Below, one piece after another: positions 2,188-58,649 of a stretch of 64,000 nucleotides of DNA (the stretch's first letter is position 1; each line of letters starts with the position of its first letter). Origin of the DNA: a virus (lineage: Duplodnaviria > Heunggongvirae > Uroviricota > Caudoviricetes); IMG/VR virus record IMGVR_UViG_2579778842_000017, positions 5,703 through 69,702 of that record. One strand, 5' to 3'. The notes under the pieces were generated by a model. That model did not search any database. It had not been told where the DNA came from and saw only the letters and a list, made by a program, of their open reading frames with translations. The position numbers and the translations under genes are program-made.

Positions 2188-4053
2188 TCACTGCTGTGTT
2201 GCCTCAGTGGCAAGCAGCGGTCTGATGGCATTTGCAGCGTTACTTAATGCTCTTTCATAGGCTGGCGTTCCTGCTTTGGTGTTTGCCAGACGTAAGAGCG
2301 CATTCCTGGCCATAGGGCTTTCATAAACCCTCGACATAAGGCCAATCCCTGTTTCCCCAGCCAATAGCGCGCCTCCGGTTTTTAGGTTACCAATAACCCT
2401 TACCAAAGGCGCGAGTGTCATGCCAGTCTTCGTCACAACATTAGCCTCAGATGCTCTTTTGGTAGCATCGAGAATAGATAACATCCCCTCTATCTCTTTT
2501 CCGTTCTTCCCACCAAATACAGTTTTAAACACCTGACCATTTGCTTGTTTTTGCAGCTTGCCAAGCTCGGTCATCATTTTCTGAGGGCTGTCACCTACCT
2601 TGTCAGCTATTTTGCTGATATATGCCGCCCTTAGCATGTCTTTACCTTTTTGATCGAGTTTCCCGTACAATCGAGCTATATCTGACCCATATTGTCCATA
2701 CACAATGGTATTTACAGCCTCGGGAGTTAAATCTCCTTTGTTTAGAACGTTTTTAAGGCGCGTTTGAGTTGCATGTGTTGCCATTTTTGCATAATCAGCT
2801 TTTCCCGCTCTCCATGCTGAAGCATCTTTTGGGCTAAGTCCTTTCGCTATAGATTTACTAAGGCTATTGGTTAGCGAGTTATAGACCCTGTCGACCATTG
2901 TTTGCGACATTGATGGCAGAACTGTACGATCGCCTTTTACGTCAATGCGGAACTGAGTTCTCAGCTTATCAAGTAACTCAAAGGCATCATCTCCATTTGT
3001 TATCTCCTGAATGGCATTCTTATAATCATTAAGCGCAGAAATGGTCTGGGTGTCAGAAACACCTTTAAGTTTCCCAAGTTCGTTTACTGCTCCGTCGATA
3101 GCTCTTATGGCGCCACTTGTATCAACTGGCTTTCCAACCATTCTTCCTGACAGGCTGTTTAGTTTTGACTTGGCTAACGATTTTTCCCTTGCAACGCCTG
3201 ACTTTAGACTATCAACGACTACAGATGGATCGTAGTCGCCGTATTTTTCGGTGAAGCGATTAACAAGCTTGGTTCTGGCATCCTGCTGTGCGGCTCTCAT
3301 TGGTCCAGTACCAGCTATGACTCCTTCTGAGTAACCCTGCAGTTGATTGCCAAGTTTTGTTTTTGGAGGAACTACATCCGATGTCATAACTGGTACATCT
3401 GCCGCAGCGGCACGCTTGAGCAATTGCTGATCTGCTGGTGATATTTCGCCACGAACAGCAGTAATTCCACGCCCTATTCCCTTTGCTGCTGCGGAAAGAA
3501 CCCCCTGAGCGGCAAGGTTAACTCCTGCATTTTTAGCTGCATTTTGTGCGAAATCGCCTTTCTGATTTGCGGCCTCTGCCAGTGATCCAATAGCCATGCT
3601 TCCTGCCGTTCCAACTCCTGGAACTAAATACCCGCCAATTGTTTCTCCAGCTTGCGCATAAGGGTCTGTTGGTCGATCTACTGGACGATAGACATCGTCC
3701 AAAACCTTGGGGCCACCAAGCCCCTGGCTGATTGCATTAATCAGGCTTGCGCCACCCTGCAATACGTCAAATGGTATGTTTACCAGACCACGACCAGCCT
3801 GCTCTGCAATTTGCCCTGCACTTTGACCACCAGTGAGCCAATCGCCAGCTTGTTGCATCAATGATGGTTCTTCTTTCTGCTGCTGAGGCGGAGGGTATGC
3901 TGCATAAAACTGATCTCTTGCTTCAGCCCATTTGTCACCAGCCTTAGGGGCAACAACCTCATCAAAATATTGCGCTTGAGCCTGTGCTTTCTGTTCTTCA
4001 GTTAACGCCTGATACTGTGGAGAGGCGATAACATCTTTCCATGCTTTAGCCAT
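2188..4053 (-). CDS. ejection (injection) protein, P22 gp16-like
   Basis: 621 aa, last gene of a P22-order late operon (3-2-1-8-5-4-10-26-14-7-20-16); size matches gp16 (~609 aa). Confidence 0.6.
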   Translation of the reverse strand: MAKAWKDVIASPQYQALTEEQKAQAQAQYFDEVVAPKAGDKWAEARDQFYAAYPPPQQQKEEPSLMQQAGDWLTGGQSAGQIAEQAGRGLVNIPFDVLQGGASLINAISQGLGGPKVLDDVYRPVDRPTDPYAQAGETIGGYLVPGVGTAGSMAIGSLAEAANQKGDFAQNAAKNAGVNLAAQGVLSAAAKGIGRGITAVRGEISPADQQLLKRAAAADVPVMTSDVVPPKTKLGNQLQGYSEGVIAGTGPMRAAQQDARTKLVNRFTEKYGDYDPSVVVDSLKSGVAREKSLAKSKLNSLSGRMVGKPVDTSGAIRAIDGAVNELGKLKGVSDTQTISALNDYKNAIQEITNGDDAFELLDKLRTQFRIDVKGDRTVLPSMSQTMVDRVYNSLTNSLSKSIAKGLSPKDASAWRAGKADYAKMATHATQTRLKNVLNKGDLTPEAVNTIVYGQYGSDIARLYGKLDQKGKDMLRAAYISKIADKVGDSPQKMMTELGKLQKQANGQVFKTVFGGKNGKEIEGMLSILDATKRASEANVVTKTGMTLAPLVRVIGNLKTGGALLAGETGIGLMSRVYESPMARNALLRLANTKAGTPAYERALSNAANAIRPLLATEATQQ

Positions 4054-5459: not shown

Positions 5460-6113
5460 TTAAAAAAGTGAACCAAGAAGACCGACGCCAGCACCAATTG
5501 CTGTACCCCAACCAGGCATGATTGCAGTACCTGCAGCTGCACCTGCTGCCGCTCCACCCAAGGCGCTCTGAAATCCTGATGGTTTATTCGCATTAGCCGC
5601 AGATGCTGCCGCCTGCTGTTGATACAATTGGCTGACGTTGTTGGCATAGTTCTGCCCGGCGTTTGCCTGACCTGTAAGAGCGCCAAGGCCGATATTTGCC
5701 AGATTGTTGTAGTTGTTCATCTGACCTGACAGCCAGTTTTGACCGAGTGTAGGTGCGATTGCTGCTAACTGGTTTCCTGTTGCTGTAGAGCCTAATCCAC
5801 CCGTTGCCTCTGCTGCTGCCAGACTCTGGTAACGCGCCTGCCCTGCAAGGTCTTTGTACTGCTGGGAGTTGTAATACTGGTTAAGCGCCTGACCTTGCCC
5901 CTGAAGAGAGGAAAGATTTTGCAACTGTGATACGTACTGCTGAGCGAGTGGCGTGAACGGTGCAAGGTTCTGCATGTTCGTCTGCCACATTTCACGCTGC
6001 AGTTCGATACCTTTTTCAGTTGCGCGTGCCTGGGCTTTTGAACCGCCATCACTGCCACCTTTGCAGTAAACAGCTTTGCTGAGGTGCTTATTGGCAATCT
6101 GGAAAATTAACAT
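5460..6113 (-). CDS. ejection protein, P22 gp7-like
   Basis: 217 aa, Gln/Ala/Gly-rich, position and size match gp7 (~229 aa). Confidence 0.6.
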   Translation of the reverse strand: MLIFQIANKHLSKAVYCKGGSDGGSKAQARATEKGIELQREMWQTNMQNLAPFTPLAQQYVSQLQNLSSLQGQGQALNQYYNSQQYKDLAGQARYQSLAAAEATGGLGSTATGNQLAAIAPTLGQNWLSGQMNNYNNLANIGLGALTGQANAGQNYANNVSQLYQQQAAASAANANKPSGFQSALGGAAAGAAAGTAIMPGWGTAIGAGVGLLGSLF

Positions 6114-33835: not shown

Positions 33836-34651
33836 GTGAGCCAGATTGATTATCAGGCACTGCGTGCTAAGGCAGAAAAAGCAACGTGTGGCGAGTGGTC
33901 GCTCGAATATGGAGAGGGCCGATTTGATGGTGATGATGCGCTAATTCATCGCGAGGCTGCTGGATATATTCCCATTTGCAGAATTGAAGGAGCGCATCCA
34001 GAAAGCGGTTTCGATGAAGATTTCCAAATGGAACAGCAGGCCAATGCTGAATTCATCGCCGCAGCCAATCCGGCTACCGTCTTGGCGCTGCTGGATGAGC
34101 TGGAAAGAAAACAGCAATACATCAAACGCCGTGACCAGGAGAACGAGGATATTGCTCTTACGGTTGGGAAGCTGAGAGTTGAGCTTGAGGAAGTAAAACA
34201 ACACGCTGAAGAATTATCCGAAACCAAGGCTGTTCGTAACCAATGGCGACCAGATATTTGCCCAATAACCGGACGTGCATTTTTCATGTGGATTGAGCAT
34301 CCAACATTGGGGAATGTGCCGACATATGGTGGCCCATTAGATAGTTACACCATTCCAACAAAGGACGGTGACGGTGAGTTTTCATGTGAGCGTTACGATC
34401 ATGATTTTGGCGGTTGGGTAGAAAGCGAATGTCTTGGGTTATATCTGATTGATGATAGAGAACAATGCAGGGTCTACGAACTGGAGGAACACGTTAAGGA
34501 ACTGGATGCTCGGGAAATATCGCTCCCGGAACGTAGCAGCATGCTTCATCGAACAGATTTTCACGATGATTACCAAACGGTAATGGCATACAAAGTTTCT
34601 GAAGTCATCGCTGCAATCCGCGCCGCAGGCATTCGCATCAAAGGAGAGTGA
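33836..34651 (+). CDS. Ea22-like (ead) protein
   Basis: 271 aa; family typical of the end of lambdoid PL operons. Confidence 0.65.
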   Translation: MSQIDYQALRAKAEKATCGEWSLEYGEGRFDGDDALIHREAAGYIPICRIEGAHPESGFDEDFQMEQQANAEFIAAANPATVLALLDELERKQQYIKRRDQENEDIALTVGKLRVELEEVKQHAEELSETKAVRNQWRPDICPITGRAFFMWIEHPTLGNVPTYGGPLDSYTIPTKDGDGEFSCERYDHDFGGWVESECLGLYLIDDREQCRVYELEEHVKELDAREISLPERSSMLHRTDFHDDYQTVMAYKVSEVIAAIRAAGIRIKGE

Positions 34652-34655
34652 TGAT

Positions 34656-35171
34656 ATGGCGTTAACACACCGCGAACTCTGTCAGATTGCGTACAAGTTC
34701 CTTAAGCGCAACGGGTTCAAGGTTTGCTTTCATGACCGCTTTGTTGCTGTAACCAGTACCGGAGAACAGCCAGATGCTATGGGATTCAGAAATTCAGCAT
34801 CATGCCTGATAGAGGCGAAGTGTTCTCGTGCTGACTTGTTGGCAGATAGAAAAAAGCGTTTCCGTAAAAATCCCTCACTTGGCATGGGCGACTGGCGATT
34901 CTTTATTAGTGAGCCGGGAATTATTTCAGTTGAGGATTTACCTCCCGGCTGGGGATTACTTCACGTTATTAACGGAAGAGTACGGAAAGTACATGGGTGG
35001 CCCAATGGTAATTGCTGTTGGGGTAATCCTGACGATAAGCCATTTACTGGAAATAAGCAGGTTGAATGCGATTACATGTTATCTGCATTAAGGCGCATGG
35101 AGTTGAGAGGGCACCTTAATGAAATATATGACGGTGTAATTGTTAATAAGAAAGAAGGAAACGCGGCATGA
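34656..35171 (+). CDS. hypothetical protein with PD-(D/E)xK-like motif
   Basis: 171 aa; D...EAK arrangement (DAMGF...LIEAKCS). Confidence 0.4.
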   Translation: MALTHRELCQIAYKFLKRNGFKVCFHDRFVAVTSTGEQPDAMGFRNSASCLIEAKCSRADLLADRKKRFRKNPSLGMGDWRFFISEPGIISVEDLPPGWGLLHVINGRVRKVHGWPNGNCCWGNPDDKPFTGNKQVECDYMLSALRRMELRGHLNEIYDGVIVNKKEGNAA

Positions 35172-35710
35172 CCACTATTACCAATAAGAAACAGTATCCC
35201 AGCGAGCAATATCTTAATGAGCTGATCACCAACATAGAGTTTGCTGCAAGGGCACCAGTTGAAGTCGTGAGAGCGATGGCAGCAGAGCTACAGAAGCGGC
35301 GCGAAGCTGATAGTGCAGAACCTGCAAGTAATCATGAAGAGTTGCCGCTTGATTATCTCCAAGGTCAAAAAGATGGTCTTGAATGGGCTGCGCAGCTTGC
35401 AGAAGCAAATCACCCACAAACTGGCGACTGGCTTTACGATGACCCGCTGGAGCTGGCTAAAGCTATCAGAAAAGGTCCTGACATGCCCGAGTTCGCTGGA
35501 CCCCATCCGGTAACTCCGGATGGTTGGATAAGCTGTAGTGAGCGAATGCCCCCTCAAGATGATTGGATTTTAATTTATTCAAAGCACGGCGAGTATATGG
35601 CAGGACAGGTACAAGGGGAATACGTGGAGTTGAGCGACGGCACTTTATCGTGGTTAGGGAACGCCTTGTACTGGATGCCGCTGCCAGAACCGCCGCAGGA
35701 GGCGAAATGA
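35168..35710 (+). CDS. DUF551-type phage protein
   Basis: 180 aa; C-terminal W/P-rich module ending WMPLPEPP. Confidence 0.55.
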   Translation: MTTITNKKQYPSEQYLNELITNIEFAARAPVEVVRAMAAELQKRREADSAEPASNHEELPLDYLQGQKDGLEWAAQLAEANHPQTGDWLYDDPLELAKAIRKGPDMPEFAGPHPVTPDGWISCSERMPPQDDWILIYSKHGEYMAGQVQGEYVELSDGTLSWLGNALYWMPLPEPPQEAK

Positions 35711-36060
35711 TGGACTATTCACAGTTAAGTGATTTTGAAATTAACAGAATGGTAGGAGACATAATTTTTAAAGGCCTTTGGGCATGTAAACCGGAAACAT
35801 CAGGGAATAACACCAACAAATGGTATTACGGAAATGCTGATACAACTTTTGAGCCATTAAACCCTTTACCTGACTACTGCAATAATCCATCGGATGCATG
35901 GCCTATTATTGTTGATAATAAAATCAGTCTAACCTGCCACCAATCTCGCGGTGAGTGGTCAGCTGTTTTTAATGCCGAGAACATTTGCTTTCATGCGAAT
36001 AATCCACTCCGAGCCGCCATGATTGTATTTCTCATGATGCAGGAAAATCAGAATGGCTAA
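35707..36060 (+). CDS. DUF2591/NinX-like protein (copy B)
   Basis: Start refined to MMDYSQLSDFEIN...; first 12 aa and last LRAAMIVFLMMQ identical to copy A, middle divergent. Confidence 0.55.
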   Translation: MMDYSQLSDFEINRMVGDIIFKGLWACKPETSGNNTNKWYYGNADTTFEPLNPLPDYCNNPSDAWPIIVDNKISLTCHQSRGEWSAVFNAENICFHANNPLRAAMIVFLMMQENQNG

Positions 36061-36473: not shown

Positions 36474-36502
36474 ACTATTACCACAACGGTAACTATTACC
36501 AC
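36474..36502 (+). repeat. 11-bp direct repeat ACTATTACCAC x2 upstream of terS-B
   Basis: Copies at 36474 and 36492; second embedded in GGTAA-CTA-TTACC. Confidence 0.35.
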
Positions 36503-36509
36503 GGTGGTT

Positions 36510-37106
36510 ATGATGCCTGCTGAACCTAAAACCTATAAACGCAAATCAACGCAATTTAAGCCACTAACAGCAATGCAGGAGGCTTATTGCCAGTCATACA
36601 TCAAAACGCCTGAAAACCAGACTCAGGCAGCGATTAACGCAGGATTCTCCCCAAATACAGCGGCAGTTAAAGCCAGTGTCATGATGCGCGATGAACGCAT
36701 TCAAAAACGGATTGCCGAGCTGATGGAGGAGCGCAACAAACGAATGCGCGTCAGTGCTGATTACGTTCTCATGCGCCTGGTGGAGATCGACCAGATGGAC
36801 GTGATTGATATCCTCAACGACGATGGGAGTCTTAAGCCAATCCGCGAGTGGCCGAAAATCTGGCGCACTACGCTTAGTGGCTTTGATCTGTCATCGACCA
36901 TCATGAACATGAACGAGGATTCGATAGAGACAATCCTCAAAAAAATTAAATGGCCTGACAAGATGAAGAACCTCGAACTGATTGGTAAGCACGTCGACGT
37001 TAACGCGTTCAAAGAGCGCCTGGAGGTTTCCGGCACGGTCACCATCGCCGACCGCATGGCCGCCGCCCGGCGCCGCGTCATAGAGCAGGCTGGTGGTGAA
37101 GAATGA
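36510..37106 (+). CDS. terminase small subunit (module B)
   Basis: Start refined to MMPAEPK... downstream of the terminator (track ORF from 36432); directly precedes terminase large subunit. Confidence 0.65.
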   Translation: MMPAEPKTYKRKSTQFKPLTAMQEAYCQSYIKTPENQTQAAINAGFSPNTAAVKASVMMRDERIQKRIAELMEERNKRMRVSADYVLMRLVEIDQMDVIDILNDDGSLKPIREWPKIWRTTLSGFDLSSTIMNMNEDSIETILKKIKWPDKMKNLELIGKHVDVNAFKERLEVSGTVTIADRMAAARRRVIEQAGGEE

Positions 37107-38668: not shown

Positions 38669-39040
38669 TTATTGCTCGCTTAACTTCTGCTTCAGCAAGT
38701 AACCTTCAAGCATCCAGATTTTGTTTACAGCATTCTGTCGGGCAATCTTCCGACCAATTTCTGCATCAAAGTTTTCCGGGCTTGCACAGGCGCTCTCTCC
38801 GGTGACGGTGAAGCCGTTGCGCAGCACCAGGACGCAGAACGTCAGCAGAGAAAGTGATTCGTGCGGCTGGTAGTTTACCTCTCCGCCAGTATGTTTCGCT
38901 TTTATGGCTACGCCAAAGGCACCATCTTCTGCTGTGAAATATGCCTCCTGAGCAATAATGCTCTCGATATGGTCTGGCGTAACGCGCGGCGCGGCTAAAC
39001 CTTTAGCCTGAATTTCAGATTCAATGTCTTTGTCACTCAT
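38669..39040 (-). CDS. hypothetical protein (antisense to module B late genes)
   Basis: 123 aa on the opposite strand between terL-B and the tRNA. Confidence 0.5.
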   Translation of the reverse strand: MSDKDIESEIQAKGLAAPRVTPDHIESIIAQEAYFTAEDGAFGVAIKAKHTGGEVNYQPHESLSLLTFCVLVLRNGFTVTGESACASPENFDAEIGRKIARQNAVNKIWMLEGYLLKQKLSEQ

Positions 39041-39241
39041 AGTCTAATCTCACCTTAAAAATGCCCGGCGAACCGGGCGAACTGGAAGCAATGAGTTATG
39101 CCTTCCGTGGCTGTACGGGTTTACAGCATGAAGTCATCGCAATGGCGTCCTGCTGTAAAAAGGGCGGTGATAGTCCTTCAAGGGAAACCATCACCGCCAA
39201 GCCCCTGGAACTTCTGGCATCACGGTCCTTAGGCGTGATTC

Positions 39242-39318: not shown

Positions 39319-39640
39319 AACGCTGAGAGCACTTAGCCTGTTAAGGCACCACACTTTGTCGCGGCTCCATAAATGCTCTCATCGTTGTACCCTCGTCTCT
39401 TCCGAGGCGTCACACCGAATCGCCGGGATGGTGAATCCCCGTGCGCGGCATAAAACCGCTCGACTTGCACATTCCGGCTACCTGGTTCGTTTGCCCGAGC
39501 AAGGGAGGGTGCCCCTTAAACGTATCCAGACCGCTATCGGCGCATGTGCCATACGCCGTACTGCTCAAAATAAAAGCTCACTCCACCTGTTCAATTTAAC
39601 GACAAGCCAGTCAGGTTAATAACAGGAATGCACTCTATGC

Positions 39641-39655
39641 TTACCTGAAAGGTAA
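39641..39655. promoter_or_regulatory. operator-like palindrome TTACC-TGAAA-GGTAA (site 2 of 5)
   Basis: Exact match about 90 nt upstream of the 39746 ORF and portal; flanks resemble site 5. Confidence 0.4.
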
Positions 39656-39745
39656 TAATTCGTGCGTTAAATGTCAACTACCTACGATAAATAAATCATA
39701 TGTGGTTAAATTGGTAATAATTTAATTGCGTACGGAGTCATTGAT

Positions 39746-57070: not shown

Positions 57071-57082
57071 ATCGCGCCTCCT

Positions 57083-57097
57083 TTACCTTTAAGGTAA
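57083..57097. promoter_or_regulatory. operator-like palindrome TTACC-TTTAA-GGTAA (site 3 of 5) at a promoter
   Basis: Minus strand reads TTGCAG-17 nt-TACTAT then TTACCTTTAAGGTAA and AAGGAGG before the 55-aa ORF. Confidence 0.5.
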
Positions 57098-57170
57098 TAG
57101 TACGCTATTCACCCACAGTCTGCAATCTGTACAGAATTATTTAAAGGCACATCCCTGTGCCGCCGTTCTG

Positions 57171-57881
57171 TCAGAAGAACCCTGCCTTGTCGTTGATGTA
57201 CTCCGCGTGCGTCTGGATATCACGCAGGCATTTGCTCACACCGACGATGTAGCAGAACATGGTGGTCAGCTCCGCCGCCGCGCCAGATACGTCGTGCCCG
57301 TCGTCCTGCAACTGGTTCAGCAGATTCATCAGCAGTGAGTTCTCCGTCAGGCCGAGAACACCAGACGGCGAGTGAATCAGGCTGCGGTAGCCGGGCTTCA
57401 GTGGGGCACTGTAGGTTTTGTTCTCTATCTTCATTGCCTGTATTACTGCTGACGCCGTGGCGTTGGCTACCTGGTCGGCAACCATCTTTATGCGTTCTTC
57501 CTGCGGGAGCGAGTCTTTAATGTAACTTCCGGTGCGGCGGATCTGAGGAAGAACCTCACCTGTAACCCATTTACGAAAGCGGTAGGGGATAGTGCCTGGT
57601 GTCACCGCATCGCGGCAGCGGAGGATCAGTGTGTAGAGGCCTGACTCGGAGATGATGTTGAGCTCTTTTACTCGGCTATCAAAAATTGCACGATGTTCAT
57701 GCCCTATGTTGAACATAGACCTTTCATCATCATCCAGTTTTTCAAGTGATTGGGTGACGTTTTGGATACGCAGCGCACTACAAACGTCTTGGGCTACAAA
57801 CCATGGTTGGCCATCGATAATGATGGAACGGATAGGGTTAACAGATTCAAATTTGAAGATGGCAGTTTGAGCATTAGCCAT
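57171..57881 (-). CDS. Bro-N domain antirepressor-like protein
   Basis: Start refined to MANAQTAIFKF...; N-terminal IIIDGQPWFVAQDVCSALRI is a Bro-N signature; C-terminal domain paralogous to the 85-aa protein upstream. Confidence 0.65.
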   Translation of the reverse strand: MANAQTAIFKFESVNPIRSIIIDGQPWFVAQDVCSALRIQNVTQSLEKLDDDERSMFNIGHEHRAIFDSRVKELNIISESGLYTLILRCRDAVTPGTIPYRFRKWVTGEVLPQIRRTGSYIKDSLPQEERIKMVADQVANATASAVIQAMKIENKTYSAPLKPGYRSLIHSPSGVLGLTENSLLMNLLNQLQDDGHDVSGAAAELTTMFCYIVGVSKCLRDIQTHAEYINDKAGFF

Positions 57882-58036
57882 GGTGGTTATCTCCACTTAG
57901 TGATTTTAATCACCACCGCAACGCCAATTACTGGTGGTGAACTGGACAAGGTTGGCGTACCGGCCTAAGTGGTACCGGCGTCCTTTCGGACCCCTGCCCA
58001 GCCCACCATAATTCGGATATGGCTGTGCTTAACGCA

Positions 58037-58059
58037 TAAAAAAACCACGTCTGGCGTGG
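58037..58059 (-). terminator. terminator-like hairpin with U-run
   Basis: Minus strand: CCACGCCAGACGTGG followed by TTTTTTT. Confidence 0.4.
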
Positions 58060-58150
58060 TATGCGCCACTTAGTAACTCGGGACGCCAATCCCGGCACTG
58101 GATTTTTCCAGTGCCCGATTACTATGGCACAAGAGGAGTGCGATGTAAAT

Positions 58151-58165
58151 TTACCGCAAAGGTAA
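58151..58165. promoter_or_regulatory. operator-like palindrome TTACC-GCAAA-GGTAA (site 4 of 5)
   Basis: Nested inside inverted repeat GGAGTGC...GCACTCC (58135..58178); minus-strand context TTGCAA-18 nt-TATATT then TTACC. Confidence 0.4.
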
Positions 58166-58196
58166 ATATAAGCACTCCACTTGGTAATTGCAAACC

Positions 58197-58454
58197 TTAT
58201 CTGGTTTGTTTTCGTAATTGTTCGGCACAATAGTCGAGATGTGTTTGCAGATCCCGCATAGACATCTGTGAGCTGGTGACGTAGTTAATCAGTGCAGTCA
58301 GTTCGGCAAGTGGGCCATCGACATTAAATCCATCCTTATCGAGCTCCCGGAGTAATTTCATCAAGTGCGATCCCTCCACCAGTGATCTAACGCCTCCCGG
58401 CGTGTGAATCCTTTCGGTAAATCCGTCTTCCAGTGGATAGTGATACTGCTGCAT
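58197..58454 (-). CDS. small antirepressor-like protein (paralog of the Bro-N protein C-terminus)
   Basis: 85 aa from ATG after GGAGAA site (track ORF 58197..58472 starts at TTG); about 45% identity by eye to residues about 150-236 of the Bro-N protein. Confidence 0.5.
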   Translation of the reverse strand: MQQYHYPLEDGFTERIHTPGGVRSLVEGSHLMKLLRELDKDGFNVDGPLAELTALINYVTSSQMSMRDLQTHLDYCAEQLRKQTR

Positions 58455-58475
58455 CTTATCTTCTCCATGCAATAA

Positions 58476-58491
58476 CTGTATAAATATACAG
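58476..58491. promoter_or_regulatory. LexA (SOS) box
   Basis: CTGTATAAATATACAG, a near-consensus CTGT-N8-ACAG palindrome about 22 nt upstream of the 85-aa gene start. Confidence 0.7.
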
Positions 58492-58530
58492 TATCAAATA
58501 ATTTATTTGCTATCCAGCACGTTTTGCGAA

Positions 58531-58545
58531 TCACCTGAAAGGTAA
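58531..58545. promoter_or_regulatory. operator-like palindrome TCACC-TGAAA-GGTAA (site 5 of 5, one mismatch)
   Basis: About 105 nt upstream of the tail fibre gene; flanks resemble site 2. Confidence 0.35.
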
Positions 58546-58649
58546 TATCTGTTCGTATTTATGGGTTGTCTATCCATATATGGTTTTTCAGGTAATAGAA
58601 TAACCGGATATGCGGCGCAACGGGTGCTGCGACTATCTGGAGATTTAAC

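Follow-up and report, generated by a model that had tools for sequence, protein, structure and literature searches.

Gene content of the ant locus

The window analysed here (64,000 nucleotides, positions 5,703 to 69,702 of the tailed-virus record IMGVR_UViG_2579778842_000017) contains two related genes on the minus strand, ant (58197–58454) and, downstream of it, a larger Bro-N gene (57171–57881), in a region that also carries a LexA (SOS) box, operator-like palindromes and two predicted RNA elements. The ant open reading frame codes for 85 residues from an ATG at 58454, or for 91 residues from an upstream TTG. A PDB sequence search with Ant returns a single match, chain E of entry 5D50, ‘Anti-repressor protein’ (E 5.5e-47, residues 2–84), and tblastn aligns Ant at 88% identity to the annotated ant of phages SPC32H (KC911856) and SPC32N. 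The protein is assigned to phrog_450; no Pfam family matches it above threshold, and a match to DUF724 falls far below. Judged by its sequence, the 85-aa protein is an ortholog of Ant of Salmonella phage SPC32H and thus of a component of a characterised system, the Ant–Rep switch. This switch was reportedly described by Kim & Ryu in J Virol in 2013 and by Kim et al. in PNAS in 2016; PDB entry 5D50 is a crystal structure of Ant together with its repressor, and 5D4Z belongs to the same system.

The distribution of Ant is narrow. At E ≤ 1e-3, tblastn against 50,697 phage records matches 35, which are named Uetakevirus phages and unclassified Escherichia or Klebsiella phage or prophage records; the homologs include those of phiV10, epsilon15, Tyrion and Klebsiella phages and prophages. 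In every locus inspected, ant is divergent from the tailspike gene and follows the last virion gene. The exact Ant protein is present in 1231 blocks of the protein collection, and all eight listed places of it are at the same chromosomal site, beside yfgI and yfgH. In phiV10, UMNK88 and most of the related records inspected, Ant is labelled ‘hypothetical’.

Tum of phage 186 and GfoA/GfhA of the Gifsy prophages are LexA-repressed small antirepressors that bind a non-cleavable repressor, and their logic is like that of Ant. A previous reading of the window from sequence only (hereafter the sequence-only reading) had named Tum and the Gifsy-type prophages as precedents for the 85-aa protein. Its description as a LexA-gated small antirepressor stands, but membership of that group is not supported: Ant is of the SPC32H type, none of the 35 matching phage records is 186-, Fels-2- or Gifsy-like, and no Pfam family is assigned to the protein.

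The Bro-N gene codes for a predicted two-domain antirepressor of 236 residues, with a Bro-N domain at residues 17–112 (PF02498, E 4.7e-19) and an Ant-like domain at residues 155–232, and the protein matches PHROG anti-repressor families with E-values down to 3.4e-55. The paralogy that the sequence-only reading had noted between the 85-aa protein and this C-terminus is borne out, with residues 2–79 of Ant aligning to residues 155–232 at 41% identity (E 3e-16). Loci differ in the N-terminal domain that this second gene encodes, which is Bro-N, AntA or P22_AR_N, while the C-terminal Ant-like module is constant, at 39–43% identity to Ant. Antirepressors with these N-terminal domains are common and poorly understood proteins, and the recurrence of the solved Ant fold at their C-terminus suggests that it is their ‘business end’. 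For the E. coli locus, one study was found, on the related phage ZX5, in which overexpression of the Bro-N protein ORF4 reduced lysogeny and lowered the prophage titre from 10^9 to 10^6 (PMC9782041). ORF4 is likened to the protein in the window by its domain and corresponding position, not by sequence, and the ZX5 work considers the Bro-N protein alone, with no mention of LexA or SPC32H (PMC9782041).

Rep-type operators and promoters

The palindrome ATTACC-N5-GGTAAT is strongly over-represented, with 12 copies observed in the window against 1.5 expected, 17 against 1.3 in the UMNK88 prophage, and 18 against 1.1 in SPC32H. The copies in SPC32H and UMNK88 are concentrated to either side of rep; SPC32H also has sites before terS, the portal operon, the lysis genes and int, and one in the spacer between ant and the tailspike gene. 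The GenBank record of epsilon15 annotates this ant/tailspike copy as a repressor binding site. We infer that the palindrome is the Rep operator.

Three copies in the window lie in the ant locus, where they flank both antirepressor genes. First, ATCACCTGAAAGGTAAT (58530–58546) lies between ant and the tailspike gene, upstream of the LexA box by about 40 bp, and its half-sites are invariant in the tailspike–ant alignment; a conserved half-site, AGGTAAT, is found in the same spacer at 58590–58596. Second, TTTACCGCAAAGGTAAA (58150–58166), identified by motif search, overlaps the -35 element of a predicted minus-strand promoter (58121–58166; -35 TTTACA, TG-n-CATAGT) that a promoter scan places correctly for the start of the IsrK-like RNA described below and thus for an IsrK–C4–antirepressor operon. 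Third, TTTACCTTTAAGGTAAT (57082–57098) lies directly upstream of a 55-aa gene of unknown function (57070–56903, minus strand, phrog_8607). Rep therefore probably regulates both antirepressor transcription units as well, and the first Ant to be made would then set off positive feedback.

The operator half-sites and the -10 element at the IsrK promoter are invariant in eight loci, with a variable spacer. In two of these, TL-2011b and one further locus (L013), an insertion of about 1 kb separates ant from this promoter, and the promoter/operator block is intact. The second module is therefore autonomous. An arrangement of ant and the Bro-N gene as one obligatory LexA-controlled operon was considered and rejected as a rule on account of these two insertions and the intact IsrK promoter.

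IsrK-like and C4 RNAs

Two RNA elements occupy the minus strand between ant and the Bro-N gene. An IsrK-like RNA (58038–58114) matches Rfam family RF01394 at 66 bits, against a gathering score of 50, and contains the a1/b1 target hairpins, with b1 (TTGGCGT) at 58089–58083 and a1 (CTAAGTGG) at 58073–58066; the c4-a1b1 family RF03163 overlaps it at 40.9 bits, and a terminator scan closes it with an intrinsic terminator (58060–58044 plus a T-run). It is followed by a full-length C4 antisense RNA (57930–58013; RF01695, 66 bits against a gathering score of 45, model positions 1–87 of 87), whose pairing segments are a’ (CCACTTAG, 57972–57965) and b’ (ACGCCAA, 57958–57952). The leader of the Bro-N gene (57882–57929) then repeats the C4 targets as b2 (TTGGCGT, 57927–57921) and a2 (CTAAGTGG, 57900–57893), and a2 overlaps the GGAG Shine-Dalgarno sequence of the gene. 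No terminator is found between ant and the IsrK-like element.

The exposed segments of C4, CCACUUAG and ACGCCAA, are exactly complementary to CUAAGUGG and UUGGCGU, which occur once in the IsrK-like element and again in the Bro-N leader. The duplex of C4 with the leader has a predicted energy of -48.3 kcal/mol, compared with -31.2 ± 4.8 for shuffled sequences, and none of 300 shuffles reaches it. Across seven variants, a’/b’ covary with both a1/b1 and a2/b2: the b element is GCG or GTC, and the a element AGUG, AAAG, ACAAAG or AACG. The three copies change together, and this compensatory covariation defines several specificity types, as seen between P1 and P7. The two RNAs also track the gene that they are predicted to control, for each of the seven loci that have a second antirepressor gene carries both, and none of the four without one does (SPC32H, epsilon15, BUCT554 and BUCT711). 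Translation of the Bro-N gene is thus predicted to be blocked by C4 pairing, a prediction that is well supported by the covariation. The sequence-only reading had recognised the downstream Bro-N paralog but overlooked its predicted separate control by IsrK-like and C4 antisense RNAs.

Two prophages in one window

Positions 34076–64000 of the window form a phiV10/epsilon15-like prophage and are 99.67% identical to the phiV10-like prophage of E. coli UMNK88 that sits between guaA and yfgI. The match begins at 34076, inside an Ea22-like gene, and the segment contains the terminase, virion genes, the ant region, tailspike and lysis genes, and then yfgI and yfgH. Left of 34076 lies a P22/Sf6/IME10-like prophage. 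Its minus strand carries P22-type virion and ejection genes, Q, nin, a DnaB-type helicase, a Phage_rep_O replication protein, CII and P22_Cro; its plus strand carries c2, an N-like protein, Ral, CIII, Kil, Rad52, SSB and Abc. The P22-like left part joins the phiV10-like right part in a recombination zone at 34076–35714, running from an ead/Ea22-like gene to DUF551. This stretch is common to both phage types, matches to P22-like phages extend to 35551–35714, and the switch between the two falls within it.

The junction appears confined to a single assembly. Among 5,426 complete E. coli RefSeq genomes, no record covers at least 80% of the junction query, and the hybrid Ea22 protein is found on one draft contig only (GCA_000696835.1, JNBX01000102.1). 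The best co-linear match, strain 2017.15.01CC, was rejected as a carrier of the junction; it has an ordinary P22-like prophage ending in Eag/TorI. The junction may have arisen by inversion or deletion between two prophages, or it may be an assembly join at a 1.6-kb repeat.

This mosaic structure bears directly on which repressor Ant would act upon. The c2 repressor of the window (27210–27860, plus strand) has an HTH_3 and a Peptidase_S24 domain; its N-terminal domain matches PDB entry 1ADR, ‘P22 c2 repressor’, at E 3e-37, and the C-terminal one matches the corresponding domain of lambda cI at E 2.6e-32 and Peptidase_S24 at E 1.1e-30. The sequence-only reading was therefore right that c2 has an intact autocleavage domain. 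It had, however, assigned c2 to the same prophage as ant, whereas the gene belongs to the P22-like module and stands outside the Ant system. The intact UMNK88 prophage instead contains a Rep protein (WP_000836290.1) of 194 residues with two HTH regions and no Peptidase_S24 domain, which matches chain A of 5D50, ‘Repressor’, over residues 1–190 with gaps (phmmer E 4e-42). Rep homologs are confirmed in both relatives checked, SPC32H and the UMNK88 prophage, and c2 is unrelated to them beyond a generic HTH. Divergence between the E. coli Rep and SPC32H Rep greatly exceeds that between the two Ant proteins, so that compatibility of Ant with Rep in the phiV10 lineage is an assumption.

No Rep homolog is found in the 64-kb window (tblastn best E 1.7), and the Uetakevirus integrase and replication genes are likewise missing from it, because P22-like DNA replaces the left arm of the Uetakevirus part (left of ~34–35.7 kb). 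Thus, Ant is without a cognate target in cis. The target of the antirepressor had been described as unclear, a puzzle that dissolves once it is seen to come from reading two prophages as one: the cognate kind of target is the non-cleavable, two-HTH Rep, which is present in the intact UMNK88 prophage and missing here. In this genome, the switch may lack a target altogether, or it may act in trans on a Rep elsewhere. More generally, adjacent or recombined prophages can make false regulatory puzzles if a window is read as one element.

The same structure admits two further explanations of the locus. It is conceivable, although unlikely, that ant was left behind in a prophage made defective by recombination and plays no part in regulation, its LexA box still driving SOS-inducible expression of a target-less protein. 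Such a history would fit the missing Uetakevirus Rep, integrase and replication genes and the start of the Uetakevirus part within an Ea22-like gene. Yet the Rep-type operators before terS, the portal operon, the tailspike gene and holin are all intact, as are ant, the RNAs and the Bro-N gene, which are 99.7% identical to their counterparts in the UMNK88 prophage. Were there no Rep in the cell, the genes behind these operators, among them those for lysis, would be expected to be derepressed; this speaks either for a Rep encoded elsewhere in the genome or for an assembly artefact at the join.

It is less plausible still, indeed very improbable, that Ant or the Bro-N protein inactivates the P22-type c2 and so provides a second, LexA-dependent induction route beside RecA-mediated cleavage. 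The c2 and ant genes do share a contig, and trans-acting antirepressors directed against the repressors of other prophages are documented in Salmonella (PMC3121763, as summarised in PMC7380047). In addition, one E. coli locus (L015) has an Ant-like module fused to P22_AR_N beside Arc and a sar RNA, and the module therefore circulates in P22-type immI regions. However, tblastn finds Ant in Uetakevirus-type records only, at the same tailspike-side position in the inspected loci, and the two relatives checked both have a Rep homolog. Moreover, c2 is related to Rep in the generic HTH only and comes with a full S24 domain of its own, and its juxtaposition with ant is unique to one draft assembly and therefore cannot have shaped Ant.

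The LexA box upstream of ant

The LexA box AACTGTATAAATATACAGTA (58474–58493) overlaps the ant promoter and has a 16-nt core, CTGTATAAATATACAG, at 58476–58491. Compared with the E. coli LexA consensus TACTGTATATATATACAGTA, it has two mismatches over 20 nt. It is the one site in the 64 kb that matches with three or fewer mismatches, and none of 100 dinucleotide-preserving shuffles contains any such match. Read along the minus strand, the last nucleotide of the box is 58476; TTATTGCATGGAGAAGATAAG comes next, and then the ATG at 58454; the gap is 21 nt, and a GGAG Shine-Dalgarno sequence with good spacing lies between the box and the ATG. The two features on which the sequence-only reading had built, a near-consensus LexA box and a spacing of about 22 nt to the open reading frame, are therefore confirmed, at 18 of 20 positions and with a spacing one nucleotide shorter. 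Two -35/-10 candidates for ant, TGGATA-17-TACTGT and TTGATA-17-TATTGC, both overlap the box, and neither is uniquely assignable. No second LexA box that could serve the Bro-N gene is found in 56.8–58.4 kb.

Comparisons among relatives bear further on the box. First, in the tailspike–ant intergenic alignment it occupies the same position in 10 of 10 Uetakevirus relatives, and its CTGT and ACAG arms are kept in all ten while the neighbouring bases vary. Second, the two Klebsiella phages retain it, shifted by 1 nt and with one base substituted. Third, SPC32H contains one AT-rich CTGT-N8-ACAG sequence only, upstream of ant, and the sole difference between SPC32H and SPC32N in the aligned stretch is a C>A change in the CAG of this box. 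SPC32N is reportedly the constitutive-Ant variant of Kim & Ryu (2013), arising through mutation of the LexA site, and the agreement of the C>A change with that reported phenotype counts against a chance box. Despite a Rep-type operator about 40 bp upstream that is equally conserved, it is scarcely credible that the box is an AT-rich accident and that ant is run mainly by Rep through this operator rather than by LexA, given the shuffles, the fixed arms amid varying flanks and a natural change that falls inside the box itself.

A putative SPC32H-type switch

The reading that we favour, and hold to be very probably correct, is that the locus is a switch of the SPC32H type, in which LexA holds ant off, the SOS response frees it, and Ant disassembles a non-cleavable Rep. 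It builds on the identity of Ant, on the conservation and position of the box, and on the finding that Rep of intact relatives has no S24 domain; that LexA binds, that SOS induces ant and that Ant binds Rep would follow by analogy with the 88%-identical ortholog. Similar to SPC32H, which belongs to the same genus, Uetakevirus, the window has ant divergent from the tailspike gene, a LexA box at the same distance from the start codon and the same Rep-type operator palindrome, and Rep of the intact E. coli relative is without an S24 domain. Unlike SPC32H, the window itself is missing Rep. A second difference lies downstream: in SPC32H and epsilon15 ant stands alone and is followed by a terminator, whereas in the window, phiV10, Tyrion and some Klebsiella prophages an IsrK–C4–antirepressor operon follows.

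In an uninduced cell, host LexA bound to the box that overlaps the ant promoter would silence ant. DNA damage would lead to self-cleavage of LexA and to synthesis of the 85-aa Ant, which would bind the Rep protein that has no autocleavage domain and break its DNA-binding tetramer, and loss of the tetramer would open the Rep-controlled lytic promoters. The corresponding steps in SPC32H are outlined in two papers, one of which links LexA self-cleavage to Ant synthesis, citing Kim & Ryu 2013 (PMC7380047), and the other of which has an SPC32H Ant tetramer binding two Rep dimers and breaking the DNA-binding Rep tetramer (PMC9638917). The second antirepressor, the Bro-N::Ant-like fusion, would be downstream and separately controlled, with C4 pairing over its ribosome-binding site blocking translation and the upstream IsrK-like RNA offering decoy C4 targets. 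The LexA–Ant switch is itself known biology in a new host lineage and adds nothing new; the practical value of identifying Ant lies in annotation.

A more speculative extension, which we put forward tentatively and consider rather doubtful, is that in the phiV10 lineage both antirepressors belong to one SOS-triggered cascade, a feed-forward loop of protein and RNA that would link an SPC32H-type switch with a P1-type immI. As there is no terminator before the IsrK-like element, LexA-derepressed ant transcripts would carry the a1/b1 decoys at their 3’ end. By titrating C4, the decoys would allow the Bro-N::Ant-like protein to be translated, and the removal of Rep by Ant would at the same time free the IsrK promoter from its Rep operator. 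The Ant-like C-terminal module found in the Bro-N, AntA and P22_AR_N fusions would be the shared repressor-binding part. In the literature searched, no description was found of a LexA-gated Ant and an RNA-gated Ant-domain fusion in tandem in E. coli Uetakeviruses, or of their possible coupling.

Comparison with other immunity systems

Among the RecA-stimulated, self-cleaving repressors of the P22 c2 and lambda cI type, c2 of the window is a member, unrelated to Rep, the target of Ant. The P22 immI region (mnt–arc–ant–sar) has no counterpart at the locus: sar gives no match at the gathering threshold in the window, and no open reading frame for Arc or Mnt is found near 56–59 kb.

The immI regions of P1 and P7 consist of the c4 antisense RNA, icd and ant, with C1 as master repressor. 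The second antirepressor module resembles them in having a C4 RNA of the same family (RF01695), a1/b1 upstream and a2/b2 over the ribosome-binding site, and an antirepressor as cargo, as well as a master-repressor operator at the operon promoter and specificity variants that differ in the pairing loops. Among open reading frames of 40 aa or more in the window, no icd-like one was seen and none terminates at the first codon of the Bro-N gene. In contrast to P1 and P7, the cargo is a Bro-N::Ant-like fusion and not P1 Ant1/2, and the phage is a podovirus whose master repressor would be Rep and not C1. The second antirepressor of the E. coli Uetakeviruses, with its predicted RNA gating and covarying specificity types, represents a natural series for RNA-based immunity.

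The isrK–orf45–anrP region of Gifsy-1 offers a second parallel. There, IsrK RNA ends at a terminator with partial read-through into a predicted antirepressor gene (Hershko-Shalev et al. 2016, PMC4825925), and translation of anrP is blocked by RNA structure or pairing (PMC4825925). In Gifsy-1, a 45-codon open reading frame whose stop overlaps the anrP start couples translation, whereas the start codon of the Bro-N gene lies in the context ACCATGG and not ATGA.

Two prophages joined in the window

Two different prophages are joined in the window (1-64000), a P22/Sf6-like element on the left and a phiV10/epsilon15-like element on the right, and the point of fusion is a common Ea22-like/DUF551 stretch at 34076-35714. 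Within the window, integrase, Rep (the non-cleavable repressor that Ant targets) and the replication genes are missing from the Uetakevirus part, as are xis and int from the P22-like part. One draft contig, JNBX01000102.1 (assembly GCA_000696835.1), is the sole sequence found to carry the fusion. The P22-like prophage carries a minus-strand gene for a 797-aa DnaB-type helicase (23163-25556). A putative intein is suggested within this protein, since the source-contig product has two DnaB_C matches, one on either side of a faint LAGLIDADG_3 match.

A likely Rep operator

The palindrome ATTACC-N5-GGTAAT occurs before terS (36477-36511), before the portal/tRNA region (39640-39656), before the 55-aa gene (57082-57098), before IsrK (58150-58166), at ant/tailspike (58530-58546) and before the holin gene (60804-60820). 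This motif is likely the Rep operator, because its copies cluster around rep in both phage SPC32H and the phiV10-like prophage of E. coli UMNK88. If so, nearly all transcription units of these phages would be directly repressed. The P22-like part has one near-perfect copy of this Uetakevirus motif (1770-1786, GTTACCTATAAGGTAAT), flanked by a gene-16-like gene (2188..4053) and accessory ORFs.

Antirepressor cassettes and their exchange

Between ant, the small antirepressor gene, and the Bro-N antirepressor gene lie an IsrK-family RNA and a C4 antisense RNA (57930-58114, minus strand), both scoring above the Rfam gathering score. The IsrK/C4 target sites are duplicated, and they covary among phage variants. 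Antirepressor cassettes have evidently been swapped between Uetakevirus and P22-type phages, to judge from an E. coli locus (L015, GCA_030346465.1, 10001-15243) in which a Uetakevirus ant-IsrK-C4-BroN block precedes an immI segment of the P22 type. Present in this segment are Arc, a sar RNA and a P22_AR_N protein of 312 aa that ends in the Ant-like module. In the reference phage phiV10 (NC_007804, locus L004, 3071-3750), the Bro-N gene codes for just 194 aa, with a 29-codon ORF behind it. Compared with the versions of 228-236 aa it appears to be truncated, because its product retains only ~31 residues of the Ant-like domain.

A second candidate LexA site

A second CTGT-N8-ACAG palindrome is present at 39111-39126 (minus strand, CTGTAAACCCGTACAG), with a GC-richer centre. 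It lies just downstream of a phage tRNA-Arg and ~70 nt upstream of a Gp49-family gene (39040..38669, minus strand), and is possibly a weak LexA site.
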